NCBI GenBank assembly: GCA_031316235.1
Contig: JALDRA010000001.1
Location: 300,001 to 332,000, forward strand
Source of the DNA: Candidatus Scalindua sp.
GTDB taxonomy: Bacteria; Planctomycetota; Brocadiia; Brocadiales; Scalinduaceae
Reading direction: 5' to 3'
Length of the DNA stretch: 32,000 bases
A model generated the notes under the pieces. That model searched no databases and had not been told where the DNA came from. It was given only the letters and a program-made list of their open reading frames with translations. Position numbers and translations under genes: made by a program. Shown piece after piece: positions 6,845 through 31,141 of the stretch. Each line of letters opens with the position of its first letter. Within the stretch, counting starts at the first letter, position 1.

Positions 6845-7058
6845 TATACGCATCATATAATGGGTACAACAAAATCATTTATAAAAAGTTCAAGGATCAC
6901 TATGCGCTTACAGAAACGCAACTATCGACATGTTGCCCATAATTTGAAAAGCGCTGCTGTCCATCAGCCTCTCTCCGGCTGTAAGTGGGATATTTCCCCG
7001 GCACAGCTGTGAAAAAGAGTTGAAATTCCTACTCACACTCTTCACATTTCTTGTGATT

Positions 7059-7170
7059 TATACTCATCTCATACTGGATTTCGGATAAAATCCGAGATTA
7101 AATTGAGCGAGTATACCTTCACCAAGATTTGGTTTCCGGTAAAACCGGAAACCAAATCGGTTTTAGTATA
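7059..7170 (+). repeat. MITE-like dispersed repeat family 1, full length (112 bp)
   Basis: TATACTCATCTCATACTGGATTTCGGATAAAATCCGAGAT...GGTTTCCGGTAAAACCGGAAACCAAATCGGTTTTAGTATA. Ends 13 nt before the ATG of the small ORF at 7184. Confidence 0.9.
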
Positions 7171-8101: not shown

Positions 8102-8181
8102 AAGTTTCAGAGTTCCTGCTCTGTGTAAAGAGTATTATTGTATTCGGCCTCTCTCTTGACCACTCAGGACCGATACGTTTA

Positions 8182-8323
8182 TATACTAAAACCGATTTTG
8201 TTTCCGGTTTTACCGGAAACAAAATCCTGGTGAAGGTATCCCCGGACAAAAGGCGCAGCCGAGGACTTAACTCGCTCAATTTTATCTCGGATTTTATCCG
8301 AAATCCAGTATGAGACGAGTATA
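8182..8323 (-). repeat. MITE-like repeat family 1, long subfamily (142 bp, 30-nt internal insertion)
   Basis: Same termini as the other copies, plus the insert ccccggacaaaaggcgcagccgaggactta. Lies between the LPS-kinase stop and the plsY start. Confidence 0.9.
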
Positions 8324-8339
8324 TCATGTATCCAAAGTC

Positions 8340-9455
8340 TTACTTTTTACCATATAAATCCGCCAACCACCACAAAAATCTATGTGTTTTGTAAGATGAT
8401 ACATAATATTTGAGAAAGGTTTTTAACCATTCTTCCTGGTTACGAAAAGAACCAGTGCCAACTTCGTGCCTCACCGATTTCTCCTCATTCGAACGGGCAG
8501 CAACAGCGGGCATAAACCTCCGTCCGGAACTGAGATATTCTCTCATGAACCGTATCTTGTCGCCATTCGTTATGTACCCTGTGCACGACACATGAGAACG
8601 GTTTTTCTTAGAGCTGTTTCTCCTGAATTTTTCCCATGATCTGTCAAGCCGCATGAGATTCTTCATTCTGCTCCGGGGTTTCAACTCATTAAACTGTTTA
8701 GATTTGTCAAGATCTATGATATAGGCTACAGATTTGTCTCTCCCCGCTGTTTGTAAAAGAATATTCTTCAAGTTCAGGTCTGCATGATAAATCCCGGCGT
8801 CGTGCATCTCCTTTATGGCATGTGCGACTCTGGAAATAATATCTCTCTTCTGTGCATAAAAAGTATTCTTATCATATCTCAAAAGCAGTTCCATGAGATC
8901 AGTAGAATTTCTGATTTCCCTTGAAATGAGCTTACTCTTATAAAACGGACCCAGAAACCTGTTTTTTATAATGGCAATTATTTCTATCGTCTGTATTCCT
9001 TTTTTAGATGCACTCTCACAAATTACAAGCTCCTGAATTGGACGCAGTCCGTGCCAGAATACGTCTCTTAATATCTTTCCAAACAGGCCGCCGTGCCAGT
9101 AATCTCTCACCACAAAACTTCCGTTATTGAGACTTTTCAGAAAAATACTTCTGCAAGGTGTTCTTCCATGGTAAGATACGCCGGCTTCGGCTCTTCCGGC
9201 ATATTGATCGTGCAGGACTCCTTTTGATGTTGCCTCCGGCTGGATGCTTGAAGATCCGGCCTTGACGTCTCTATATAAATCAAACAAAATATCAAGGTCC
9301 TGTTCCGTTAACTGTACCTCGTATTTTTTGTGAATATATAACGATATCCTCCCTTTTTTTAAAATAGTAAAATAGTCAGGCAGCCTTACCTTACTCATAA
9401 CAGGTGCAATTATAACAGATTCATAGTGCGAAGTCAAAAATGAGACAAAATTCAA
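8340..9455 (-). CDS. lipopolysaccharide kinase (Kdo/WaaP) family protein
   Basis: 371 aa. Catalytic loop HADLNLKNILL followed by IIDLDKS. Divergent from a heptosyltransferase gene. Start may be M21 (MSKVRLP). Confidence 0.7.
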   Translation of the reverse strand: MNFVSFLTSHYESVIIAPVMSKVRLPDYFTILKKGRISLYIHKKYEVQLTEQDLDILFDLYRDVKAGSSSIQPEATSKGVLHDQYAGRAEAGVSYHGRTPCRSIFLKSLNNGSFVVRDYWHGGLFGKILRDVFWHGLRPIQELVICESASKKGIQTIEIIAIIKNRFLGPFYKSKLISREIRNSTDLMELLLRYDKNTFYAQKRDIISRVAHAIKEMHDAGIYHADLNLKNILLQTAGRDKSVAYIIDLDKSKQFNELKPRSRMKNLMRLDRSWEKFRRNSSKKNRSHVSCTGYITNGDKIRFMREYLSSGRRFMPAVAARSNEEKSVRHEVGTGSFRNQEEWLKTFLKYYVSSYKTHRFLWWLADLYGKK

Positions 9456-10692: not shown

Positions 10693-10800
10693 TATACCAA
10701 ATCCTGGTGAAGATATCCCCGGACAAAAGGCGCAGCCGAGGACTTTACCCGCTCAATTTTATCTCGGATTTTGTCCGAAATCCAGTATGAGATGAGTATA
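10693..10800 (-). repeat. MITE-like repeat family 1, long subfamily with the second hairpin module deleted
   Basis: Keeps the terminal tatac, lacks the ccggtaaaaccg hairpin module, and carries the same 30-nt insertion as the copy at 8182-8323. Confidence 0.8.
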
Positions 10801-10939
10801 ACCCGATATTTTTACCTCTTCACAACACTGCGGGTTCAGACCTGCTGATCTTGTATTTCAACATTCAATGAAAAATGAGAGTTTTGCAGCTTGAGCACAG
10901 AGAGAAGAGACCCGATAGACTGCTAAACAGAGGTGACTG

Positions 10940-11726: not shown

Positions 11727-11838
11727 TATACTAAAACCGATTTGGTTTTCGGTTTTACCGGAAACTAAATCTTGGTGAAGGTATACTCGCTCCGTTTTTT
11801 CTCGGATTTTATCCGAAAACCATTATGAGATGAGTACA
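11727..11838 (-). repeat. MITE-like repeat family 1, full length
   Basis: 112-bp copy, 104 bp upstream of the rlpA-like start. One terminus has diverged (gagtaca). Confidence 0.9.
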
Positions 11839-12039
11839 ATTAAATCAAACAATTACAATAAATGAACCATTATGTCAAGAAAGTTTACTAAAAAGATTTA
11901 TAAACAAACTAACAGCTCTTAATTGGATGCTTCGGAATTCTAAAATAGGGCAGGATCTCTGGAAATAGAGGTTACAGAATTTTCATACTTCGCTTGACGT
12001 AAGCCGTGAAATGTCGTGAAAAAAAGAGGCAGAGGCGGA

Positions 12040-12257: not shown

Positions 12258-14006
12258 TTATAACTGTTTATCCTGTTCCAGTAATTTTTCAAATTCATCG
12301 GCAGTAACCGGCTCACTGAACAGAAAGCCCTGTATCTCATCGCAATCCTGCTGTTTGAGAAAGTTTAACTGCTCTTGTGTTTCAACTCCTTCTGCAACAA
12401 TCTTAAGGTTCAGGTTTTTCGCCATGGCGATAAATGCCATGATGATTACTGAATCGTTGACGTCGAAGATTACTTCATTCACAAAAGAACGGTCAATCTT
12501 GAGTGTACTAAGCGGGAATTTTTTAAGATAGCTTAAGGAACACAATCCAGTACCCAAGTCGTCAATACTTATATGAACTCCGACATCAACCAATTCCCTC
12601 ATTTTGTAGGAGGAGGCATCCGCATTCTTCATGGACGTGTTTTCAGTAACTTCCAGTTCCAGCAGATTTGGTTCCATGCCTGTCTCATTTAATGCCTGCA
12701 CAACCATTTCAATAAGGTTTTGCTGGTTGAACTGCAGCGTGGAAAGGTTAACAGCCACACGCAGAGGAGTAAATCCTGCATCCCTCCATACCTTGTTTTG
12801 TGCACAAGCTGCCTTGAGGATCATTTCCCCCAGAGGCACTATCATTCTCGTTCGCTCTGCAGTATTCAAAAATTCTGCGGGATAGATTATACCTTTATCG
12901 GGGTGTCTCCATCTTGCAAGAGCTTCCATTCCAACAATCCTGCCACTCTTAATGTCCATCTGTGGTTGATAATAGACCATGAATTCTTTCCGCTTTAAGG
13001 CCTGGCGTAAATCGTTAACCATTGCCATCCTCGCATAAGCATTCGTCTGCAAGGGCGGTTTGTAAAACTGAAAGTTGTCTCTGCCCTGATCCCTGGCATG
13101 ATACATCGCGATATCGGCACTCTTTAACAAGGTATCAGCATCTTTACTGTCAACGGGATAAAGGGCTATCCCTATGCTGGTAGTAATATGCAGTTCGTGA
13201 GACTCCAGCGTTATTGGATGCCTCACGGTTTCGTTGATCTTGTTGGCCATTTCAGCGGCATCTTCTGCGTGAGTAATTCCCGGCAGTAACAACGTAAATT
13301 CGTCATCTCCATGACGTGTTACGGTATCATTCTTCCGCACAGTGTTTACAAATCTTTTTGCAACCTCTATCAGCAGCTTGTTTCCTATACAATTTCCAAG
13401 GGTATCATTTATTTTTTCAAATCCATCAAGGTCGAGAAACATAACCGCAATTATGGTATTATCACGCTGTGCATGAGCAATTTCCAGCGTAAGGCGATCC
13501 TTAAAAAGAAACCGGTTTGGCAAACCTGTCAAGGAATCATAGTACGTCAATTTTGTGTCTTCCCCCTCACCCTTTTTATGTTTGCAGATATAACGCCACT
13601 CGCGCAGCGCCCTTTCACATATGTACGGCATGTTTACTAAAGTCGCTTCAGATTTTAAGAGAGAATCCAAAGCCCCCAACTTTACAATTTTCTCCGTCAG
13701 CTGTTCATCGTCATAATTAGTTAAAACCAATACAGGTATTCCCTCCTTGGCATTACCTGCTCCAGAAAGTGTGGTATCTTTTCCATCCAACAGATCATAA
13801 TCGATAACCACCAGATCAGGAGAATACTTTGTCAGGCAGGTACGAGCCTCAATGAGATTGTGAACAGTTGTCTGTTTCATCTGCGGAAACCGGTTTTCAA
13901 AGGCCTGCTCCAGCAATTCAATAGGTAAGGCATCATTTACAACAAGTAAAATATGAATAGAATTCATTTTCATGGCAAAAAGAATAGTACTCCCGCACCT
14001 GTTCAA
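12258..14006 (-). CDS. response-regulator receiver + degenerate GGDEF + EAL domain protein (c-di-GMP phosphodiesterase-like)
   Basis: REC (ILLVVND...DLVVIDYDL...VLVLTN...KLGALDSLLK). GGDEF domain reads GDDEF and is preceded by RKND (RxxD I-site) at the canonical spacing. EAL domain has EALARW, DDLGTG, KIDRSF, EGVETQEQ. The likely start is M12 or M14 (13973 or 13967) rather than the ORF start. Confidence 0.9.
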   Translation of the reverse strand: MNRCGSTILFAMKMNSIHILLVVNDALPIELLEQAFENRFPQMKQTTVHNLIEARTCLTKYSPDLVVIDYDLLDGKDTTLSGAGNAKEGIPVLVLTNYDDEQLTEKIVKLGALDSLLKSEATLVNMPYICERALREWRYICKHKKGEGEDTKLTYYDSLTGLPNRFLFKDRLTLEIAHAQRDNTIIAVMFLDLDGFEKINDTLGNCIGNKLLIEVAKRFVNTVRKNDTVTRHGDDEFTLLLPGITHAEDAAEMANKINETVRHPITLESHELHITTSIGIALYPVDSKDADTLLKSADIAMYHARDQGRDNFQFYKPPLQTNAYARMAMVNDLRQALKRKEFMVYYQPQMDIKSGRIVGMEALARWRHPDKGIIYPAEFLNTAERTRMIVPLGEMILKAACAQNKVWRDAGFTPLRVAVNLSTLQFNQQNLIEMVVQALNETGMEPNLLELEVTENTSMKNADASSYKMRELVDVGVHISIDDLGTGLCSLSYLKKFPLSTLKIDRSFVNEVIFDVNDSVIIMAFIAMAKNLNLKIVAEGVETQEQLNFLKQQDCDEIQGFLFSEPVTADEFEKLLEQDKQL

Positions 14007-14044
14007 TGCTCCCCATGTCGAAGAGTTCGGGTACTTTCAGGACT

Positions 14045-14116
14045 GACAAAGGGCAAAAAGAAAGCCTTACTACCAAATATGCACCGGCACGTCATATTCG
14101 GTAGTAAGGCTTTCTT
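14045..14116 (-). terminator. intrinsic terminator candidate on the minus strand
   Basis: 24-bp stem, 14058-14081 paired with 14093-14116. The single non-Watson-Crick position is G-U on the minus-strand RNA but A-C on the plus strand. On the minus strand it is followed by TTTTTGCCCTTTG. Confidence 0.55.
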
Positions 14117-14732
14117 CAGATAAACATCACTGTAATCTGTTTAAGATCCGTTACTTTGCGTCCCTGGATTACTCCAGGTTTGCCATTTTCGAAAATGTGC
14201 TATAAAAACACCTTACTCATGTGGATAATTTTTTGAACGCATGACCTTTGAGACATCGAAATTACGCAAAATATTTATTTGACTATACTATAACTCTATC
14301 AGCTTGTCAATACGACAAAAATACGCCTGTTAAGCAGAATATTCAGCCTGGAGAGTGAGATCATGGATTTTACTGATCAGGTTTGGTTAAGTTACAGATT
14401 TTCATAGTATGCTATTTTTTAAAACTTGTTTCTTTCACTGGTAATGAAAATACATGCCATTGAGACACACATACATTCACTGTCAGAGACGCAGGTTTCA
14501 GAAAAAAGTCATTCTCACAATCCAGCTTTTGATTTTCTTCATTCCCGTAAAGTACACATGCCCTGTAAACGTTGTAAAATTACCTTGTTACAGGCAAAAT
14601 GATTTGATTACTTTCTACTATGGTATTGAAAACATAGAACTTGACACCATGGTTACATTTGTTACCATAATGAGGTCTGTTGCGTTGACTCAATTACATA
14701 ACGAGAGATACTGGTGATCTGTAACGAGACAT

Positions 14733-14760
14733 TTGACAATTTCAACGAGCCATAGATTAT
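14733..14760 (+). promoter_or_regulatory. candidate sigma70-like promoter of the three-gene operon
   Basis: TTGACA (14733-14738), a 16-nt spacer, then GATTAT (14755-14760), about 65 nt upstream of the ATG at 14827. Confidence 0.3.
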
Positions 14761-14826
14761 GGTTTTCCCCTGATTTCTTTCCCCGTGTCTCCTCACTATA
14801 AACACTTTTGGCACTAAGGACCCGTA

Positions 14827-15681
14827 ATGAACGAGCAATTAAACAATTGCAAAAGGATTGAACTACTCTTATCTGAAGCAAAATCTCCATTAACACTGCA
14901 GGAGATCTGCAGAAAAGTATTCCAATTGAAAAGTAACCTTGAACACTGCACACAAACCATACAGATTCTTCTGGACGCAGAAAAGATTTTCCATTATCCT
15001 TCTCTTCGGAAAAATTCAAAAGAAAGATACTGGCATATCTCACCCCAGCAATTTGTAAAAAATAAAATTTACCGATTGTTCGAAAAAAATTGTAAGGACC
15101 GTACATTCAAAAGCGTCAAAGGTATATTGCATAAATGGGAACTTGAATATTTTGATGAAGCCCTTGGTCTCTTATTCAGAGAAAGAAACGTTTTTGAGAT
15201 AAAATATGGCCGGACACGGTACTTAAAGGGGATACAAAAATTAACCACTGAATTGTCAGAATGGTTTAATCCCGTTCGAAACATAAAACTGACTCCTGCA
15301 CAGTGGGAAGCTTTTCTTAAAGGAGAAAAGCTTCCAGAGATGCAAACAGCACCGAAAAAATCAAAGGCTTCTTTACCGGAAGAACTGATCAGAGAATGGT
15401 ACCAGGAGGACCGGCACAAAAGATACGGACTAGAGACCATTCCAATAACGTGGACTGGTAACCGTTACCTCTCCTGGTGTGAAGAAAACGGACATGAAGC
15501 AGACATACAAGTATTTAACAACCGCCTGAAACTACTTTCCCAGGAGGGTAAGGTTGAATTGACGCATCATTCCATGCCTGATCAGATACCGGAAAGTGAA
15601 AGAAAAGACCTTTTTGAAATCCGTCATGGTACTATTGCATATTACTGGAGATATGTCATGGAGACTGAACAATGTCGATAG
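14827..15681 (+). CDS. hypothetical protein with predicted winged-helix (wHTH)-like segments; gene 1 of the candidate system
   Basis: 284 aa. N-terminal RIELLLSEAKSPLTLQEICRKV... looks HTH-like, with further wHTH-like stretches (FDEALGLLFRERNVFEIKYGRTRYL; NRLKLLSQEGKVELT). The stop overlaps the next start by 10 nt. Confidence 0.6.
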   Translation: MNEQLNNCKRIELLLSEAKSPLTLQEICRKVFQLKSNLEHCTQTIQILLDAEKIFHYPSLRKNSKERYWHISPQQFVKNKIYRLFEKNCKDRTFKSVKGILHKWELEYFDEALGLLFRERNVFEIKYGRTRYLKGIQKLTTELSEWFNPVRNIKLTPAQWEAFLKGEKLPEMQTAPKKSKASLPEELIREWYQEDRHKRYGLETIPITWTGNRYLSWCEENGHEADIQVFNNRLKLLSQEGKVELTHHSMPDQIPESERKDLFEIRHGTIAYYWRYVMETEQCR

Positions 15682-17780
15682 AAAAATACCTACACCTCAA
15701 CCCATTTATTAAATCATATATTAATGAAGTTGACATCTGGGGTAATGACGATGATTTCCAGACGGTAAATTCAATTAATAAAGAAGTTTTAGATGTCCTT
15801 TGTAAAGACATAGAAGAAGTGAGAAATCAACTGCATACAAGGGTGAGATTTCTTGTTGGAAGTTCCGGTTCAGGCAAATCACATATAATCTCATGTCTCA
15901 GGCGGTATCATAGTCAGCATGCATATTTTACTTATGTTTCAAACCCCCCTCTTCAGCATTGGGAGATCAGCAGGCATATGCTTCAGAAAATCATATGGGC
16001 GCTGGGACAACCTGTAAGAGAAAATGACAGGGTGCTGGAGTATTCCCAAATGCGTCAAATCGTGTATGGGCTTTTGATGAAAACAAAGAAGTTTGCAAGG
16101 AAATCATTCGATAAGGTACATAAAAAATGGACGAAGATTAAGAAGAAACATTATCCGAAATTTTTTAATGAATTAATGAAGGTTGCCGGTCAAGGCAGTG
16201 ATCTTAAATTAACAAACCAGATTACCAAAGTCTTACTGAGCGTACTCGATCACGAAAAAGAGAACCTCGCCCTTGAATGGTTGTCAGGTTCAAGCTCTAT
16301 GAGCAACAAAGATCTTGAAATAATTGATGCCGGTGAACCAATGAGTAATTCTGAAATAAAACTTCTTCTCACAGCGCTGGGACACCTCACAAAAGATATC
16401 GGTCCGATCCTGATAGTCTTAGATCAGCTTGACAGAATGAAAAATGAACATATAGAGATATTTGAGACAATCCTCTTTGATCTGTTCGATAGTACGAATT
16501 TTTATGTCGTAATCAGCTTACTTGAAGATGTGTTTGATACATGGTCAAGGCATCTCACCGTACCATTAAAGCAGCGGATTGGCACACCGTCTTCGGAGGG
16601 TTCACTAACATTGCCAATTGTCCACGTACGGGCAATCCATAACCGGAGAAACAAAAGAGCGCTTATCTTCCAGCGCCTCTCCTCTGAAGAGCTCATTGAG
16701 ATGCGCCAAAAAGATAAGATAGAAGATCCCCTCTTCCCCTTTAATGAAGAAATTTTAGAAAACGTACTGGGAGAGGATCCTCTTTTCCCGAGAATCTTAT
16801 TAAACGAATCCCAATTCCAGTATCGAAGTATCATTACCGGTGCCAAACCTGAAAAGGAAGAGCTCTCTGCAACGATAGCGGAAAATTTTGCAGAAATCAG
16901 AGAATCAATCAATACAGAAGAGCTCATCACGAATACAACGTTTATTGCCGACAGAATTTCCGAACTATTTGAAATAATTTTAAAACGAGATGGTGAAACA
17001 ACGGTCACATACGAGGATGGTCCCTTCGTAACTGATGCTATTGTGAATAATTTTATCGGTTCAGACAGGGTATTCTCCCTCGGTGATACCAGGATCCGTG
17101 TGATTGGATATGATGTCCAGCAAGGAAGCAAATTCCCGAGTGTTCTCAGGAAAATAGTAGATGCCCCCCCCAATACAATCTTATTTAGAGACGCCAAAAT
17201 ACCAACAACCGGGAAAGTTACTCAGGATCTTCTGGAGAAATTCCAAAAGGACAAAACCTTTATCCTGTTAGACAATAAGGACATTCGCGATCTTTATGCC
17301 CTGGGTAGATTGCTGGCAAAGATGCGGCAGGGTGATTTTCATGACTGTAAAACCGATCCGGATCCTACATCTTCAAATATCATGGATTGCCTTTCAAAAA
17401 TGTCAATCCTGACAGATAAAGAGATTGTACATGAATTCAAGCGAATGGCAGAAAACAGGACGAAAAGTAATAAGAATGATATCATGTCTCCAAGCAAACC
17501 GTATCCCGAACAGGATTGGCCTGCTGAAGAAGCCGCAGAAGTGGCAAATACACTTGCACATAACATTAAGACAATAATGAGCAGAGAGAGATGGATCTGC
17601 TTTGAACGCCTGCTCTATCTCATGTATCAAAGCGGCGTAAATGATATTGATCAGGGCAAACTTATCAGCTGGCTGCACTCAGAAGAGTTGAGAGAACTTT
17701 TAGAAATTTACCCAACTGATCCCGAGTTCCCGAAACAGAAAAAAATCATTGTCTGGAAAGAAGAGAGTCTGAATGCTTAA
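15672..17780 (+). CDS. P-loop NTPase (STAND/AAA_16/ORC-like), gene 2 of the candidate system
   Basis: 702 aa. Walker A VGSSGSGKSH (K69), Walker B-like ILIVLDQLD, and a long helical C-terminal region. GGAG lies 9 nt upstream of the ATG. The stop overlaps the next start by 8 nt. Confidence 0.7.
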   Translation: MSIEKYLHLNPFIKSYINEVDIWGNDDDFQTVNSINKEVLDVLCKDIEEVRNQLHTRVRFLVGSSGSGKSHIISCLRRYHSQHAYFTYVSNPPLQHWEISRHMLQKIIWALGQPVRENDRVLEYSQMRQIVYGLLMKTKKFARKSFDKVHKKWTKIKKKHYPKFFNELMKVAGQGSDLKLTNQITKVLLSVLDHEKENLALEWLSGSSSMSNKDLEIIDAGEPMSNSEIKLLLTALGHLTKDIGPILIVLDQLDRMKNEHIEIFETILFDLFDSTNFYVVISLLEDVFDTWSRHLTVPLKQRIGTPSSEGSLTLPIVHVRAIHNRRNKRALIFQRLSSEELIEMRQKDKIEDPLFPFNEEILENVLGEDPLFPRILLNESQFQYRSIITGAKPEKEELSATIAENFAEIRESINTEELITNTTFIADRISELFEIILKRDGETTVTYEDGPFVTDAIVNNFIGSDRVFSLGDTRIRVIGYDVQQGSKFPSVLRKIVDAPPNTILFRDAKIPTTGKVTQDLLEKFQKDKTFILLDNKDIRDLYALGRLLAKMRQGDFHDCKTDPDPTSSNIMDCLSKMSILTDKEIVHEFKRMAENRTKSNKNDIMSPSKPYPEQDWPAEEAAEVANTLAHNIKTIMSRERWICFERLLYLMYQSGVNDIDQGKLISWLHSEELRELLEIYPTDPEFPKQKKIIVWKEESLNA

Positions 17781-19620
17781 ACCTGAAATTTTTAAACTTG
17801 AAATAACTACCGAGTTAAGAAACAAATTACAACAGAAATTATTTGAGACTCTTTTTGACAACATTGATGAACTCCCGCCACTTCACAGGACGAAGGAGGG
17901 TATCCCCTCATTTACGGTAACAGAAATTAAAGAGAGACTGAAGGCCCTCCTTCCCACTTATGCAAAAGACATCAGTCAACATTTAAAAATTACCCCGAAA
18001 GATAAAAGAACGGATGCCCTTAATATTGGAAACCAACTTCATGAGTGGTTGAAAGAAGCAATCCTGTTTTTCCGAAGAGAAGGTGCAGAGTGTCTACGGG
18101 AAGGATTAAGCCGGCCTGGTCCGGATGAAGCATACCCGTTTGTATGGAGTACTCTTTTCCATAGAAAGCTTATCTCATTAGCTCAATCATCAGGGCTGTT
18201 AAAGAACGATAGTGATATTGAGAAGTGCGATATACTCATGGAGTGTATTAAATTGTGGGTAAAAGAGATTTGCCAGAATCTGAAAAAATTGAACATGAAA
18301 AAATTTTCACCGTCTGCATATTTTCTGGACATGGAAACACAGCTTGATGCCATAATACGTTTTGGTGACAAAAAGATCCATGTCCGCAGCAGACCAGATG
18401 CCGTTACCTTAAATCAGGCCAATGGGGAAATCTGTCTGTGGGAGTACAAGTATGGAAACCAGGGCCAGTATGAACTGCAGATTGCACAGGTATTGTTTTA
18501 CATGTCATTGATTGAAGCCGTAAAAGGAGTAAAGTGTAAACGGGCGATCTTGTGGTCATTCAGCCCCCGTGAAGAAATACTGCCACAGAAAGTACGAGAA
18601 GATATCAAGATTGAAGAACCTGCGCCTCCCTTCCCTGAAGAAGTGGAAGAAGCCTTTTCAGGATATATTGGAAATGAATTATCTGTCAGAAAGCTAAAAG
18701 TAAAGCTTACGCTGGCAACCAAAAAACAACCAAGGAAAATGCCAGATAATATTATGTTCTGCGGACCAGCCGGTCTGGGGAAGACGGAACTGGCAAAAAG
18801 AGTTGCTTCGTGCCTGGAATTGCCTTTTATTAATATACCCGCTATCTCATTCAGTAATCTGGAACAGCTGGTTTCAGAAATCGACCGAACTCTCAGGGCA
18901 CACAACTTGGAAACAGAAGAGAGCGGCATTGATTCAGGAAAGCCCAGGCGTAAATATCCCCCGCTCGTTCTCTTTATAGACGAAGCACACAGACTTTCAA
19001 GAAGGGCTGATGAATTTCTGAATTTTTTTGAGCCAAAAGAACGAAGGGCAGTTGTAAAAGAGTTTGTGGGAGATTTCGTTGATGCTACAATTTTATTAGC
19101 AACAACCGACAAGGGTGCCCTGCCTTCAGCATTTCTCACCCGCTTCAGAATGCTAGACCTTGTACCTTACTCTATCGAAGAAGTGGGCATGATAATTTAT
19201 GAGGAATTCAAGAATAAGGATATGGTAATAACCGCTGATGTATGCCGGGGAATTGCAAAGGTGGGGAGGCTGGTACCTCGTCTCGCCTTAAGCCGGATGG
19301 GCGATTTTCTTGAACACAATGAATTTAAAGCAGAATCATATCCTTTTTCAATGAAAGGTCTGCAAAACATGCTGAAAGAAGTTTGGCTCGTTGACGAAAA
19401 CGGGCTTACGCCCAGCGACTTCCTGTACCTTGACTGCGTAAAGGAGCAGCCCAGGGGCGTTCTCATATTGAACAATTTGCTGCCATGCAAAATAGAAGAG
19501 ATCAGAAACATCATTGAACCATATCTGATGCAGATAAATGCCGTAAAATCGACAAAGCGGGGACGCTCGATAACTGAATATGGGAGAATGATACTGAAAA
19601 ACAGACCGGAATGGCTGTAA
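17773..19620 (+). CDS. fusion protein: N-terminal RecB/Cas4-like PD-(D/E)xK nuclease + C-terminal RuvB-like AAA+ ATPase with winged-helix tail; gene 3 of the candidate system
   Basis: 615 aa. Nuclease motifs SRPD209AV, LWE224YK226 and Q239VLFY243. AAA+ motifs FCGPAGLGKT (K337), LVLFIDEAH (D403/E404), LLATTDKGALPSAFLTRF. C-terminal EPYLMQINAVKSTKRGRSIT parallels the RuvB EPYLIQ...RTPRGR segment. Confidence 0.75.
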   Translation: MLKPEIFKLEITTELRNKLQQKLFETLFDNIDELPPLHRTKEGIPSFTVTEIKERLKALLPTYAKDISQHLKITPKDKRTDALNIGNQLHEWLKEAILFFRREGAECLREGLSRPGPDEAYPFVWSTLFHRKLISLAQSSGLLKNDSDIEKCDILMECIKLWVKEICQNLKKLNMKKFSPSAYFLDMETQLDAIIRFGDKKIHVRSRPDAVTLNQANGEICLWEYKYGNQGQYELQIAQVLFYMSLIEAVKGVKCKRAILWSFSPREEILPQKVREDIKIEEPAPPFPEEVEEAFSGYIGNELSVRKLKVKLTLATKKQPRKMPDNIMFCGPAGLGKTELAKRVASCLELPFINIPAISFSNLEQLVSEIDRTLRAHNLETEESGIDSGKPRRKYPPLVLFIDEAHRLSRRADEFLNFFEPKERRAVVKEFVGDFVDATILLATTDKGALPSAFLTRFRMLDLVPYSIEEVGMIIYEEFKNKDMVITADVCRGIAKVGRLVPRLALSRMGDFLEHNEFKAESYPFSMKGLQNMLKEVWLVDENGLTPSDFLYLDCVKEQPRGVLILNNLLPCKIEEIRNIIEPYLMQINAVKSTKRGRSITEYGRMILKNRPEWL

Positions 19621-19739: not shown

Positions 19740-19851
19740 TATACTAAAACCGATTTGGTTTTCGGCTTTTCTGAAAACCAAATCTTGGTGAAGGTATACC
19801 CGCTCCGTTTTTTCTCGGATTTTATCCGAAATCCAGTATGAAATGAGTATA
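19740..19851 (-). repeat. MITE-like repeat family 1, full length
   Basis: 112-bp copy between the convergent stops of the nuclease-AAA+ gene and the DUF442 gene. Confidence 0.9.
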
Positions 19852-19865
19852 AAACAGGTCTTCTT

Positions 19866-20438: not shown

Positions 20439-20495
20439 TTTTTAAATTTTTCTGATTTGAAAGGTACAGTCTCTGCTTATAACCTTTCGTGTATT

Positions 20496-20609
20496 TATAC
20501 TCATCTCATACTGGATTTCGGATAAAATCCGAGATAAATTTGAGCGAGTATACCTTCACCAAGATTTGGTTTCCGGTAAATCCGAAAACCAAATCTTGGT
20601 GAAGGTATA
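20496..20609 (+). repeat. MITE-like repeat family 1, rearranged variant
   Basis: The left two thirds are canonical. The normal right terminus is replaced by an inverted copy of the internal tataccttcaccaagatttgg module, giving a near-perfect 61-nt palindrome at 20549-20609. Confidence 0.85.
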
Positions 20610-20921: not shown

Positions 20922-21386
20922 CTAGAAGTTATTGTTTTCTATTGCCTTTATTTTCTCAATCCTCCTCTTGTGTCTCGCTTCATTACTGAAAGGAGTCTCC
21001 AGCCAGATTTTTACCAGTTTTTTTGCCTTGCCAGTGTCTAATGTCCGATTTCCCAGCGATATAATATTGGCATCATTGTGCTCTCGCGACATTCTGGCAC
21101 TGTACTCATCATACACCACCGCTGCACGGATACCCCTTACTTTATTCGCCACAATCGCTTCTCCCTGGCCGGAACCGCCAATAACGATACCTTTTGAATC
21201 TTCACCTTTCAGGATCGCTTCGGCCACTTTCTTCACAACCGGAAATATAAAATCAGGATAATCATCTTCTTCATTAAACTCATACGCACCCATGTCCTGA
21301 ACTTCACATCCCAAATCAAGAAGATGTCTTTTGAGTTCCTCCTTCAACTCAAAGCCTGCGTGATCGGTCCCTATATATATCTTCAT
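20922..21386 (-). CDS. rpiB: ribose-5-phosphate isomerase B
   Basis: 154 aa. MKIYIGTDHAGFELKE N-terminus, and GIVIGGSGQGEAIVANKVRGIRAA typical of the RpiB/LacAB family. Confidence 0.9.
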   Translation of the reverse strand: MKIYIGTDHAGFELKEELKRHLLDLGCEVQDMGAYEFNEEDDYPDFIFPVVKKVAEAILKGEDSKGIVIGGSGQGEAIVANKVRGIRAAVVYDEYSARMSREHNDANIISLGNRTLDTGKAKKLVKIWLETPFSNEARHKRRIEKIKAIENNNF

Positions 21387-21398
21387 ACTCTCTCCATA

Positions 21399-21525
21399 GT
21401 GGTTGAGCTGAAACTATCCCCTCTTCCTGCATTACGGTAATAATTCCGTAATCCTCACGTTAATTGTACGTTCCGATTGCGAAATTATTACGTACCTTGT
21501 ATCTGGAGAGTTTTAGCTCAACCAC
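21399..21525. repeat. repeat family 2, 127-bp self-complementary element
   Basis: Termini gtggttgagctgaaact / agttttagctcaaccac are inverted repeats with 1 mismatch. The interior is also roughly palindromic. Homologous to 23377-23497 in the opposite orientation. Confidence 0.75.
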
Positions 21526-21614
21526 GGGGGTTTCCATTTAAGCACTATTTACGCTCATGAATTATCATTTTGAAATTATTCATTAAAACAATGCATGAGA
21601 CGACAATCCGTTTG

Positions 21615-22670
21615 TCATGCAACTAAGGTATTTAAAAACTTTGCCATTTCATGAAACTTACCAAAATCTCTTCGGTTAAAATCCATGACAAGCCTCGGCA
21701 TAGTACTGTCGCCCACACCTTCCTCACCTGTAGAATGAGGTGGTGATAGTCGTATAGTTCCTGATCGAAGAATACTCTTGTATTTCTCATTCAGGAGCTG
21801 TATATCTTCACTCTTCAACAAGCGATTGAGATTGATGACTGTCTTCTCTTCAAAATATCGCATCGAGTGATAGACCCTGAAAAATTTTAAAATTTCATCC
21901 AGCGCTTCCTCAACATCATGTGTATGAAAAAACAGATTCAAATCCTCGGGCGAAATAAAGCCTCCTTTTGCGAGGGTTTCCCGCAAGAATGTCATCCATT
22001 TCCCCCAGTAGTTCGACTCAGGTGGTTCTATCAGAATAAGAGGGAGGGGTTTACTTTTTCCCGTCTGGATTAATGTCAGGTTTTCAAAACATTCATCCAT
22101 TGTACCAAAACCACCGGGAAATAAAACGGTTGCATCGGATTCTTTGAGAAAAAACAGTTTTCTGTTAAAAAAGTACTTAAAGGTAATAGCTTTTTTGTCA
22201 CCTTCGATGTATGGATTATGACGTTGTTCAAAAGGGAGTCTGATATTCAAGCTGAAACTGTTTTCACGCTTTGCACCCTTGTTCCCGGCTTCCATTATCC
22301 CGGGTCCCCCACCGGTAATTACCTTAAAACCATGATTAACCATCAACGCTGACAACTTTTCCGCCATCTTATATTCCGCAGAGTCGTTCCGAGTCCGTGC
22401 TGACCCGAAGAAGACAACCTTTCTTGTGTTTCGGTAGGGCACAAATGTCTTCGCTGCATATCGTAGCTCCTTCAACGCCTTATTGATCAGCTTGAGATCT
22501 CCCCTGTCGCTATTTTCTCTTCCCAATTTTAAAATGGTCGTAACCATCTCCTTCAGGAGATCGGCATTCTCATGAGTAGAACAGAGCTCCGCAAGGTCAG
22601 CTATGGTCCTGAAGAAATTATCTCTCACTCCATCGCACTTTCCCATTTTGCGCTTTTCCATATAAATCAT
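21615..22670 (-). CDS. LOG family (TIGR00730) protein, PpnN/YgdH-like nucleotide 5'-monophosphate nucleosidase
   Basis: 351 aa. Motifs GGGPGIMEAGNKGA and PGGFGTMDE, with N- and C-terminal extensions as in the long LOG forms. The SD AAGGAG overlaps the atpK stop. Start at M1 versus M4 is unresolved. Confidence 0.75.
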   Translation of the reverse strand: MIYMEKRKMGKCDGVRDNFFRTIADLAELCSTHENADLLKEMVTTILKLGRENSDRGDLKLINKALKELRYAAKTFVPYRNTRKVVFFGSARTRNDSAEYKMAEKLSALMVNHGFKVITGGGPGIMEAGNKGAKRENSFSLNIRLPFEQRHNPYIEGDKKAITFKYFFNRKLFFLKESDATVLFPGGFGTMDECFENLTLIQTGKSKPLPLILIEPPESNYWGKWMTFLRETLAKGGFISPEDLNLFFHTHDVEEALDEILKFFRVYHSMRYFEEKTVINLNRLLKSEDIQLLNEKYKSILRSGTIRLSPPHSTGEEGVGDSTMPRLVMDFNRRDFGKFHEMAKFLNTLVA

Positions 22671-23121: not shown

Positions 23122-23145
23122 TCAACCCCTCCTGTAAAATTTGAT

Positions 23146-23257
23146 TATACTCATCTCATACTGGATTTCGGATAAAATCCGAGATAAAATTGAGCGAGTA
23201 TACCTTCACCAAGATTTGGTTTCCGGTAAAACCGAAAACCAAATCGGTTTTAGTATA
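23146..23257 (+). repeat. MITE-like repeat family 1, full length
   Basis: 112-bp copy in the atpI-atpK spacer, 24 nt upstream of the atpK ATG. Confidence 0.9.
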
Positions 23258-25292: not shown

Positions 25293-25889
25293 TTATCCTG
25301 CTTCCTTTATCTTGTTTTTGGCAATCCTTGCCCATCCCATGGCTGCGGCCTGCTGATCTCCGAGAAATATCAATATTTTTCTCACCGCCTCTTTTGCCTC
25401 GGGAATCTTCACCTTTTCGAAAAGATTCACTCTCTGAGATGTGATACACAGTTCTCTTTGAAGAGAGCAGAGCCTTTCTGAAAGAATAAATTCTTCCGCC
25501 CGAAGTGTGAGCATTGCCGCAATCATGGTGACCGCGCGATCAACCCATAAGGGTGTGAGCAACAAATCATACTCTTTTCTCTCCATCTGAGCAGCAACGA
25601 AGACAGGGATATCTACACCGGCAATATTTTCAACACGGGTTTCTATCTTTTTTATACTCAGTAATTGGGAGAGACCGACATCCTCACCCAGAAGACCAAG
25701 CCATGGAGTCATCTCCTCGATCAGTTTATCATAATCGGCAGTTACTCTTTTTTGTTCAATCCTTACCATCTCGATCACTTTCTGAAGCTGCTGTTTCTTT
25801 ATGTGTAAAATCGGTAGATAACGGTTAAAACGCTTGAGATTATTTTTTTGCTTCCTCAGCTCTGTCTTTGTAAGCTTTATTTTTTGCAT
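25293..25889 (-). CDS. atpD: V/A-type ATPase subunit D
   Basis: 198 aa, coiled-coil. The MQKIKLTKTELRKQKNNLKRF N-terminus is typical of D subunits. Position in the operon fits. Confidence 0.8.
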   Translation of the reverse strand: MQKIKLTKTELRKQKNNLKRFNRYLPILHIKKQQLQKVIEMVRIEQKRVTADYDKLIEEMTPWLGLLGEDVGLSQLLSIKKIETRVENIAGVDIPVFVAAQMERKEYDLLLTPLWVDRAVTMIAAMLTLRAEEFILSERLCSLQRELCITSQRVNLFEKVKIPEAKEAVRKILIFLGDQQAAAMGWARIAKNKIKEAG

Positions 25890-26000
25890 ATACTAAAACC
25901 GATCTGGTTTTCGGTTTTACCGGAAACCAGATCCTGGTGAAGGTATACTCGCTCAAATTTATCTCGGATTTTATCCGAAATCCAGTATGAGATGAGTATA
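25889..26000 (-). repeat. MITE-like repeat family 1, full length
   Basis: 112-bp copy in the atpB-atpD spacer. Its terminal base (25889) is the first base of the atpD ATG. Confidence 0.9.
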
Positions 26001-26137
26001 ACAAGTTATAATCCTTTACTCCGCTCTCGATGAAGTGACACTGAGATGAGTATCCATTGAAAAATGCAGGGGTAATTTTCCAGCAACCTTTACTATAAAG
26101 CTCGTTGGAAAACAGGCCCAGCAATTCATTCTTCAGA

Positions 26138-30672: not shown

Positions 30673-31029
30673 AATCGGTACCTAAATTTTTTCTCAGACA
30701 AGGCATCCCACCTTGGAGTTACAAAGTGTAACTGCAGTGATAATACCAGAATTCAAAGATATTTAAAGTTAAAATAGTGCTACTTATTTTTACTCCATTG
30801 CATCTGAACGGGAAATTGGTAACTGTTTATATCGTCTCCTAGAAAAAATCCGCTGACCACAGAACAGTTATCCTTTTACAAGCTTTCTCCGAGATTGCCC
30901 GATTAACAATAGATTGCTCCTCCAGTTAACCTCTCAACATATCCGAAATACTGATGAATTTCATCATAATGTAGTGGACAGGTCTGGAAAATCCATTGTA
31001 CCCATTAGTCACTTACTTGTCATTACATT

Positions 31030-31141
31030 TATACTCATCTCATAATGGTTTTCGGATTAAATCCGAGATAAATTTGAGCGAGTATACCTTCACCAGGATT
31101 TTGTTTCCGGTAAAACCGAAAACCAAGTCGGTTTTAGTATA
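31030..31141 (+). repeat. MITE-like repeat family 1, full length (diverged)
   Basis: 112-bp copy upstream of the ATPase operon. Confidence 0.9.

Follow-up and report, generated by a model that had tools for sequence, protein, structure and literature searches.

A rare three-gene cassette of Candidatus Scalindua, built around a nuclease fused to a RuvB-like motor, as a candidate anti-invader system

The stretch of DNA analyzed here, 32,000 nucleotides from Candidatus Scalindua sp. (NCBI GenBank assembly GCA_031316235.1, contig JALDRA010000001.1, positions 300,001 to 332,000 of the forward strand; hereafter the window, numbered from its first letter), carries three overlapping genes, which we call g1, g2, and g3. 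They encode a tandem winged-helix protein, an Orc1/Cdc6-type AAA+ ATPase, and a PD-(D/E)xK nuclease fused to a RuvB-like AAA+ translocase. We favor the reading, to which we assign a probability of roughly 0.58, that this trio is a self-contained, horizontally mobile system directed against invaders such as phages or plasmids and centered on an ATP-driven nuclease. The support for it lies in the conservation of the cassette, natural fusions of g2 to g3, intact catalytic residues in g3, purifying selection, and the genomic contexts in which related RuvB-like motors are found. To these are added the patchiness and rarity of the family and the position of several loci (numbered L001 and so on; here L001, L002, L021, L023, L024, L037, and L038) beside integrase, insertion sequence (IS), TIR, CHAT, caspase-like, or toxin-antitoxin (TA) genes. 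A first-pass annotation of the same DNA, made from its letters alone, had proposed the trio as a candidate undescribed defense system: the trio does appear to be undescribed, its defensive function is something that we only infer, and the idea has a conceptual precedent in the literature (PMC10853773), discussed below.

All three open reading frames (ORFs) lie on the forward strand, begin with ATG, and form one conserved gene unit. The g2 start codon at 15672 lies ahead of the g1 stop codon (TAG, 15679-15681), giving an overlap of 10 nt, and the g3 start codon at 17773 lies ahead of the g2 stop codon (TAA, 17778-17780), giving an overlap of 8 nt; the three overlapping ORFs and their coordinates were exact in the first-pass annotation, and the same unit recurs across loci. 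The sequence AAGGA stands 9 nt 5' of the g1 ATG, and a purine-rich stretch precedes the g3 start. Database records from the anammox planctomycete Candidatus Scalindua sp., on a contig of 4.15 Mb, include proteins 100% identical to those of g1, g2, and g3. In comparison with two other Scalindua genomes of 75-81% nucleotide identity (L004 and L005), the ratio of nonsynonymous to synonymous substitution rates (dN/dS) is 0.11-0.15 for g1, 0.08-0.12 for g2, and 0.08-0.11 for g3, and because such low values reflect purifying selection on all three, g1, g2, and g3 are expressed, constrained genes and not chance ORFs.

The presumed effector is g3. Many of its homologs are already annotated with PF12705, the family matched by its N-terminal nuclease domain (Table 1), and 25 of 26 g3 homologs from trios retain the nuclease motif [RK]PD...x12-14...[ED]YK. 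Since an alignment of 22 sequences holds no invariant or near-invariant cysteine, a four-cysteine Fe-S cluster of the Cas4/AddB type is not indicated. The C-terminal ~320 residues share with RuvB an AAA+ core, a lid, and a C-terminal winged helix, together with Walker A and B, sensor-1, Arg-finger, and sensor-2 elements; the core residues listed in Table 1 occupy invariant or near-invariant columns and are supported by a motif scan, and the Pfam AAA match spans residues 327-461. The description of g3 as a nuclease of RecB/Cas4 type joined to a full RuvB-like motor, with which this analysis began, is borne out by Pfam and by the motifs RPD(209)...E(224)YK(226), GPAGLGK(337)T, and FID(403)E(404)AH, and the residues that had been proposed for mutagenesis (K69 in g2; K337, D403/E404, and D209/E224/K226 in g3) are correctly numbered.

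Despite this shared architecture, g3 is distinct from RuvB. Its identity to RuvB is 26-30%, it has an N-terminal nuclease extension of ~290 residues, and its core carries, before Walker B, a clade-specific insert of ~18 residues ending in YPPLVLFIDEAH. It scores below the cut-offs of both NCBIfam RuvB equivalogs (NF000868/TIGR00635; 104.1 bits against a cut-off of 282, and 92.4 against 299). RuvB works with RuvA (and RuvC), usually from a ruvAB operon, whereas the partners of g3 are g2 and g1. The nearest solved structure by profile search is nevertheless bacterial RuvB (E = 1.6e-34), with none closer, and this favors a different reading, in which the trio is an accessory machine of host DNA repair or recombination that would perform branch migration and cleavage at Holliday junctions, stalled forks, or DNA ends, with g3 uniting the activity of a RuvB-like motor with that of a resolvase/RecB-like nuclease and with g1 and g2 providing RuvA-like targeting. 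The PD-(D/E)xK fold is shared by the Hjc/RecU resolvases and the RecB/AddB nucleases, which also counts for such a repair role, but ruvA and ruvC are absent beside the trio at all of more than 25 loci, and linked rec genes were likewise seen at none of the loci.

The g2 protein gives Pfam matches to AAA_16 and KAP_NTPase, a sub-threshold match to PF10923 BrxC_BrxD (17.2 bits against a cut-off of 22.2), and a weak match to TniB (E = 0.075). Its AlphaFold2 (AF2) model has a predicted local distance difference test score (pLDDT) of 84, and the best Foldseek matches of the model are archaeal Cdc6 (1fnn, 4e-5), Orc1/Cdc6 (2qby), and eukaryotic ORC4/Cdc6; RdrA is also among the matches. These agree with the earlier view of g2 as a P-loop NTPase of ORC type, and the motifs on which that view drew (GSSGSGKSH and ILIVLDQLD) are present. 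The Walker B motif reads LDQLD, with Gln (Q252) at the position of the catalytic Glu of Orc1/Cdc6 proteins. In AAA+ enzymes, a Glu-to-Gln change in Walker B normally leaves ATP bound and slows its hydrolysis, trapping the enzyme in the ATP-bound state. From the DQ Walker B we infer stable ATP binding and slow hydrolysis for g2, which is presumed to be an ATP-bound sensor or loader. Between the AAA+ core and lid and the C-terminal winged helix, residues 422-507 adopt an alpha-beta-beta-beta-alpha-beta arrangement in the AF2 model, and this middle domain holds a degenerate motif, G[ST]D...x12...[HY][DH][VI][QH], without Lys. The C-terminal winged-helix-like domain fits the C-terminal winged helix of the Orc1/Cdc6 proteins that head the Foldseek matches.

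For g1, no significant family match was found. Its AF2 model, built on a Scalindua-only alignment, has a pLDDT of 59 and is confident over residues 1-120 only; its Foldseek matches are tandem winged-helix proteins (Pol III C34, TFIIE-beta, ScpB, MukE, SelB, and MarR), and a weak Pox_D5 signal of the winged helix-turn-helix (wHTH) type appears in six of 12 g1 homologs. Within the limits of this low-confidence model, g1 is the winged-helix protein free of catalytic motifs that it had first been taken for, with no specific relatedness to DndG, SspB, or FokI shown. Identity to distant homologs is 23-32% for g1, 27-38% for g2, and 33-53% for g3, so that g1 evolves fastest; this gradient fits the order recognition subunit, switch, effector, and g1 is presumed to be the subunit for DNA recognition or specificity.

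The family to which the trio belongs is small. At 90% identity, the g3 homologs among 5.8 billion proteins fall into ~61 clusters, and an exhaustive search of 1.84 billion representatives recovered the g3 architecture in ~20 clusters at 50% identity. The cassette is spread over at least six phyla: Planctomycetota (Scalindua), Desulfobacterota (Desulfomonile, Syntrophales), Nitrospirota, Acidobacteriota (Vicinamibacteria), Gammaproteobacteria, and Verrucomicrobiota. A cultured gammaproteobacterium, Nitrosococcus halophilus Nc4, carries it in a closed genome (Nhal_1462-1464, CP001798, locus L024), and the closest relatives of the Scalindua proteins outside that genus, at 52-53% identity, are from Desulfobacterota. 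We fetched 40 loci, 25 of which have enough upstream sequence for a test of gene order. Gene g2 lies immediately 5' of g3 in all 25, and g1 lies 5' of g2 in 23, with gene junctions that overlap or are 1 nt apart; the co-occurrence of the three genes, which the first-pass annotation had put forward as a check, is thus found nearly throughout. The two loci without g1 (L012 and L025) are the most divergent, and their active sites are degenerate. In the g2 + g3 dyad of L025 (10001-13943), g3 has RPQ...QYS as its nuclease motif and a search for its Walker B gave nothing; in that of L012 (4365-8559), the Walker B DE of g3 is changed to RH. Both may be decaying or repurposed copies. In L021 (7926-9999), g2 is split into two ORFs of 123-130 aa and 552 aa, which indicates a frameshift, pseudogenization, or an assembly error.

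In ~9 further clusters, g2 and g3 are joined in single proteins of 1130-1190 aa that end in the nuclease and RuvB-like module. Their N-terminal halves align with the g2 profile over 471 columns (hhalign probability 98.7%, E = 1.8e-16). These fusions keep Walker B as FDQ[IV][DE], in which the DQ is retained, and those of the L011 type keep the nuclease motif as GR[IV]D...VDYK; no g1-like ORF lies upstream of the L011 fusion or of the L012 dyad. Natural fusions of this kind are Rosetta-stone evidence that g2 and g3 act together physically.

The motor of g3 belongs to a RuvB-like clade of ~400 clusters (E <= 1e-30 against the g3 profile), and this clade is encountered in operons for DNA modification. 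The ~18-residue insert, ending in YPP.V.F.DE.H, is present in sampled trio, fusion, DndE-fusion, giant, and standalone members and in none of seven canonical RuvB proteins. In a Planctomycetota metagenome-assembled genome (MAG; L013, 547-6495), a DndE-motor fusion of 477 aa sits inside a phosphorothioation operon with the order DndA-DndD-[DndE::motor]-DndC, and the DndE::RuvB-like architecture is common to several clusters of ~475 aa. A RuvB-like C-terminus also ends giant proteins of 1650-1970 aa, which form at least 50 clusters at 50% identity. In a Gemmatimonadota MAG (L014, 769-10993) and a Dehalococcoidia MAG (L015, 779-11026), giants of 1728-1736 aa close four-gene operons that otherwise encode a C5 cytosine DNA methylase, an AAA_16 ATPase of ~700 aa with a weak SspF match, and an unknown protein of ~520-530 aa. 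These two giants show a PD...ExK-like motif before the RuvB-like C-terminal module, no PADLOC match, and no Pfam match in their first ~1,400 residues. Homology of the L014 partner proteins to g1 and g2 was considered and rejected, the alignment being limited to the P-loop. Judged from its gene content, the methylase-linked giant operon looks like an uncharacterized type of restriction-modification system. Standalone forms of ~330-370 aa belong to the clade too, as do further N-terminal fusions. The DndE-fusion and methylase-linked giant loci are DNA-modification or restriction contexts for the motor clade and not repair loci, which counts against a repair role for the trio.

A class of operons with much the same parts has been described. 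A computational study predicted "HerA/FtsK capture" counter-invader operons, with no experimental validation (PMC10853773, NAR 2024), whose parts list comprises an Orc/Cdc6 protein, an inactive restriction endonuclease (REase), an active REase, a ring translocase, and a multi-wHTH protein. In the Orc/Cdc6 protein, the inactive REase forms an insert that follows the AAA+ core and precedes the C-terminal wHTH; wHTH domains occur in these operons, in a subset of them on a separate protein that evolves fast and contains 2-4 wHTH. The same study reports DndE::HerA/FtsK fusions in Dnd operons and DndH giants with a C-terminal HerA/FtsK domain. The trio is like these operons in its Orc/Cdc6-clade AAA+ protein (g2), its active nuclease of REase fold (g3), its predicted ring translocase of double-stranded DNA (dsDNA), and its wHTH protein (g1), and also in domains that are variably fused or split, in mobility, and in patchy distribution. 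The likening of g2 to the published Orc/Cdc6 proteins is drawn from fold and parts list. The trio differs in its motor, a RuvB-like AAA+ domain with a RuvB C-terminal winged helix where the published operons have a HerA/FtsK (RecA-like/ASCE) pump; g1, g2, and g3 have no HerA, FtsK, or DUF87 match, and PMC10853773 makes no mention of RuvB. Because all three contexts of capture are mirrored here (in L013, in L014 and L015, and in the trio) and RuvB goes unmentioned there, we regard the trio as a RuvB-motor variant of that class. It has a published conceptual precedent, and the RuvB-like motor in place of HerA/FtsK is the new part.

A wider scenario, which we offer tentatively and hold to be distinctly less probable than a defensive role as such, is that the recruitment of a dedicated RuvB-type dsDNA pump to immunity has happened repeatedly in bacteria, alongside the HerA/FtsK captures. 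On this scenario, a hexameric nuclease-RuvB ring would be placed on invader DNA, or on its branched replication intermediates, by g2 and a Cdt1-like g1, as a reuse of licensing-style loading, and the same clade would power at least three further, uncharacterized modification or restriction systems (the DndE fusions, the methylase-linked giants, and the standalone forms). The resemblance to the loading of MCM by ORC/Cdc6 and Cdt1 is one of concept only, an Orc/Cdc6 AAA+ protein and a tandem winged-helix cofactor acting on a hexameric AAA+ DNA motor. The trio differs in that its motor is of the RuvB clade and carries a nuclease, that it is accompanied by no origin or replication genes, and that its loading is hypothetical.

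Comparison with characterized systems yields resemblances of logic and little of sequence. As first supposed, the trio corresponds to no named system: PADLOC 2.0 gives no system match, and a literature search that included the locus tags and two modularity-based discovery preprints found no publication naming or describing the trio. Matches in PADLOC and NCBIfam to P-loop or generic AAA+ proteins (DolB, IetA, PtuA, mad3, SngB, DndF, and clamp loaders) were rejected as evidence of membership. The likeness to Lamassu and Septu raised in the first-pass annotation comes down to P-loop similarity: PtuA is matched at E ~1e-3 over ~40 P-loop residues only, no Lmu protein is matched, and the Orc/Cdc6 AAA+ fold of g2 is unlike the ABC-type PtuA (which pairs with the HNH protein PtuB) or the SMC-type LmuB (which pairs with LmuA). 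For DndFGH and SspFGH, there is no full-length match, only a P-loop match to DndF (E = 0.005, residues 52-86). McrBC and the Type I/ISP enzymes share the functional logic of a dsDNA motor ATPase, a PD-(D/E)xK endonuclease, and a separate DNA-recognition module, but are unrelated in sequence. Their motors are the McrB GTPase or superfamily 2 (SF2) proteins and not RuvB-like AAA+, and the trio lacks a cognate methylase and has one more ATPase, of Orc/Cdc6 type; no McrB, McrC, or HsdR model in PADLOC, Pfam, or NCBIfam matches it, and its AAA_5 match is weak and generic. BREX is closer in one respect, as g2 and several homologs give weak to moderate BrxC_BrxD matches and as loading or activation of the BrxHI helicase is the role proposed for BrxD, an Orc/Cdc6-clade AAA+ protein (PMC12839542), a loader-plus-motor idea that would also suit g2 and g3. 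The partner motor of the trio is, however, a nuclease-RuvB fusion and not an SF2 helicase; PglX, PglZ, BrxA, BrxB, and BrxL do not accompany the trio, and a scan of the operon and of +-6 kb around it shows neither a methyltransferase nor PglZ. MANTIS (Gao_RL), as summarized by its authors, requires a methyltransferase and a helicase-nuclease and is not comparable to the trio.

The anti-invader reading can be put as a mechanism. By analogy with RuvB, g3 would form a ring that pumps dsDNA, with an active PD-(D/E)xK nuclease on every subunit, and because each subunit would bear one, translocation would be coupled to DNA cleavage. On the model of Orc/Cdc6 biology, g2 would be a DNA-bound ATP switch that recruits or loads g3, and g1 would supply or tune the recognition of the target, so that target DNA is marked by g1 and ATP-bound g2 together. 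Plausible triggers are modified DNA (as in Type IV restriction), DNA ends, and branched replication intermediates. The same parts could also serve abortive infection, with sensing by g1 and g2 activating g3 to degrade the host chromosome and so causing growth arrest or death. Orc/Cdc6- and STAND-type ATPases often sense infection and unleash indiscriminate effectors (PMC10853773), RdrA is among the fold matches of g2, the operon has no modification or other self-marking gene, and several loci lie in TA-rich neighborhoods; yet the methylase- and Dnd-linked relatives of the motor suggest discrimination by marks on DNA, at least in those relatives, and a fast-evolving g1 with multiple wHTH domains points to recognition of DNA and not of phage proteins. 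We consider this outcome of infection unlikely.

The genomic surroundings of the cassette are mixed. About 8 of 13 annotated neighborhoods have genes of mobile, TA, or conflict type at most a few kb away (Table 1). No neighbor gene family recurs across loci, the surroundings all differing outside Scalindua. Three loci unrelated to one another have a small DUF2283 gene close to the trio, a few kb away at most (L023, 5457-5675; L024, 17604-17831; L037, 12231-12428). Together with the MNT, HEPN, or PIN TA genes that flank the trio in L023 and L037 and the PIN-DUF433 pair in L002, these suggest a tendency of the cassette to settle in variable regions rich in TA genes. In L024, ~7.5 kb 3' of the N. 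halophilus trio, a 1107-aa protein (21342-22067, minus strand) has AAA_22 and DUF87 (HerA-like) matches, and TA genes (HTH_3/HI1420, PhdYeFM, DUF2283) and a transposase fragment lie between the two; it may represent a published-type Orc/Cdc6-HerA/FtsK system in the same island.

Such surroundings raise the question of whether the trio is itself a selfish module of mobile elements, serving target selection or transposition, replication initiation, segregation, or addiction. TnsC and MuB are Orc/Cdc6-clade ATPases used by transposons. Both ATPases of transposition and initiators of replication belong to the Orc/Cdc6 family (PMC10853773), and the weak TniB match of g2, the integrases and transposases that flank the trio in L001, L021, and L038, and the MITE (miniature inverted-repeat transposable element) copies that flank it in the window all point the same way. 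A selfish module would be expected to look otherwise in several respects, however, and we think it highly improbable. The trio has no recombinase, transposase, primase, or polymerase as a conserved companion, the adjoining IS and integrase genes varying by locus; no terminal repeats bound the cassette; and the site in Scalindua is stable and syntenic. No family member was found in 72,556 PLSDB plasmid records, 50,697 GenBank phage records, or IMG/VR viral contigs, where only canonical ruvB appeared. This gives no sign of the plasmid or prophage module that the first-pass annotation had considered, and nothing else that it had named as refuting its proposal turned up; a PHROGs scan of the trio proteins gave only generic AAA+ matches.

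Several observations weigh against the anti-invader reading. The operon holds no methylase or other self-protection (modification) gene, the formation of a ring and its loading are carried over by extrapolation from the biology of RuvB and of Orc/Cdc6, and the g1 structure model is of low confidence. For the reading of the g2 middle domain as an inactive REase, the topology, the position, and the degenerate motif fit, but the tests at sequence level came out negative (by Pfam in 22 homologs, by a profile search of PDB, and by hhalign against the g3 nuclease). About 5 of the 13 annotated neighborhoods are purely housekeeping or hypothetical. Enrichment beside known defense genes, another check that had been put forward, was not seen: PADLOC gave only scattered single matches among 210 flanking ORFs. 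Among the calls beside the trio, those for mad3, mad6, and mad8 (MADS) and AriA were rejected as ABC-transporter ATPases, those for PD-T4-6 as ordinary Ser/Thr kinases, and those for RtcR as sigma-54 regulators, and a PsyrT match was not counted since it may be host RecQ. Finally, Scalindua species keep the cassette at a single syntenic position, where housekeeping genes surround it and inheritance has been vertical, over synonymous divergences (dS) of 0.8-2, with the GGDEF/EAL gene upstream in both L004 and L005 and the same downstream genes in L004; such stable retention is unusual for a defense system. This long vertical retention, with strong purifying selection and a housekeeping-flanked site, would suit the host repair machine introduced above, as would the housekeeping neighbors at several other loci. 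An accessory of host repair does not fit so well with a family that is extremely rare and scattered over unrelated phyla, with loci inside IS or integrase islands, or with a g1 that evolves fast, and we judge repair to be an improbable function for the trio.

Around the trio, the window has features of its own. Upstream of g1 lies a gap of 820 bp (14007-14826), whose extent was given correctly at first and which is not empty. A full-length c-di-GMP-I riboswitch lies on its minus strand, in the 5' leader of a REC-GGDEF-EAL gene (12258-14006, minus strand), and is preceded by a near-consensus sigma-70 promoter-like site (14310-14282). An inverted repeat (14058-14081/14093-14116) forms a 24-nt hairpin that shares sequence with the aptamer at its 3' end and makes a likely expression platform, and the arrangement suggests that a sensor of c-di-GMP controls an enzyme that metabolizes c-di-GMP. 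This leader accounts for much of the gap, which is a divergent regulatory region and not an island boundary. Two sigma-70-like sites lie on the side of the operon, and as their count is not above the shuffled expectation, the promoter call is tentative. Downstream, the MITE copy noted at first sight is real: it lies 120 bp 3' of g3, contains a perfect 12-nt hairpin (19752-19784), and is one of about nine copies of a repeat that also recurs in the Scalindua genomes L004 and L005. In a scan of trio-flanking ORFs, the sole defense-library match shown for window proteins is that of a 371-aa ORF (8340-9455, minus strand), with a weak match to PADLOC MkoA (Mokosh helicase-like; E = 7.5e-7, residues 111-261) that is probably generic ATPase/helicase similarity.

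Table 1. Features of the trio and its surroundings in the window, and genes found near the cassette at other loci
Feature	Position	Strand	Description
g1	14827-15681	+	284 aa; tandem winged-helix (multi-wHTH) protein without catalytic motif
g2	15672-17780	+	702 aa; Orc1/Cdc6-type AAA+ ATPase plus C-terminal domains
g2 Walker A (residues 63-70)	15858-15881	+	GSSGSGKS, K69; G63, G66, G68, K69, S70, and H71 invariant in g2 alignment
g2 Walker B (residues 247-254)	16410-16433	+	IVLDQLDR; D251-Q252-L253-D254 invariant
g2 middle alpha/beta domain (residues ~422-533)	16935-17270	+	Candidate inactive restriction-endonuclease-fold insert; AF2 secondary structure
g2 C-terminal winged-helix-like domain (residues ~621-695)	17532-17756	+	AF2 secondary structure H-E-H-H-H-E-E
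g3	17773-19620	+	615 aa; PD-(D/E)xK nuclease plus RuvB-like AAA+ translocase; Pfam PDDEXK_1, AAA, RuvB_N, RuvB_C
g3 nuclease domain (residues 69-266)	17977-18570	+	PF12705 PDDEXK_1, 24.1 bits vs cut-off 22; catalytic D209, E224, K226
g3 RuvB-like AAA+ core (residues ~294-520)	18652-19332	+	Walker A K337, Walker B D403/E404, sensor-1 T444/T445, Arg-finger region R457/R459, sensor-2 R499/R503
g3 RuvB C-terminal winged helix (residues 542-608)	19396-19596	+	Pfam RuvB_C, E 1.1e-11, 44.9 bits vs cut-off 24.7
Candidate operon promoter region	14641-14760	+	Two sigma-70-like sites, 14641-14668 (TG extension) and 14733-14760; consensus scan
c-di-GMP-I riboswitch (GGC variant, RF03167)	14096-14193	-	Full-length, 56.8 bits vs gathering score 59, E 9.4e-12
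MITE-like intergenic repeat, ~113 bp	~7058-7170, 8178-8323, 10696-10803, 11727-11841, 19740-19852, 20495-20595, 23144-23257, 25889-26001, 31029-31141	both	At least 9 copies in the 32-kb window
L001 neighbors			TIR, DruA-like, integrase, resolvase, IS elements
L002 neighbors			PIN-DUF433
L021 neighbors			IS elements, integrase, CHAT
L023 neighbors			MNT, PIN
L024 neighbors			TA genes, transposase fragment
L037 neighbors			MNT-HEPN, DUF2283
L038 neighbors			IS66, two caspase-like peptidases
L040 neighbors			PIN

If the trio is a defense system, it would add a RuvB-like AAA+ class of motor that is absent from characterized anti-phage systems, and it would support a view of ring translocases as modules that can stand in for one another and that Orc/Cdc6-anchored, Dnd-type, and methylase-linked systems have captured. 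The Glu-to-Gln change in the g2 Walker B and the g2-g3 fusions together offer a concrete model, open to testing, in which ATP gates the loading of a nuclease ring, and experiments are feasible because N. halophilus Nc4 is a cultured carrier with a closed genome. The methylase-linked giants of ~1,700 aa form a sister family much larger than that of the trio. For anammox biology, the trio gives Scalindua a candidate immunity locus whose inheritance is stable.

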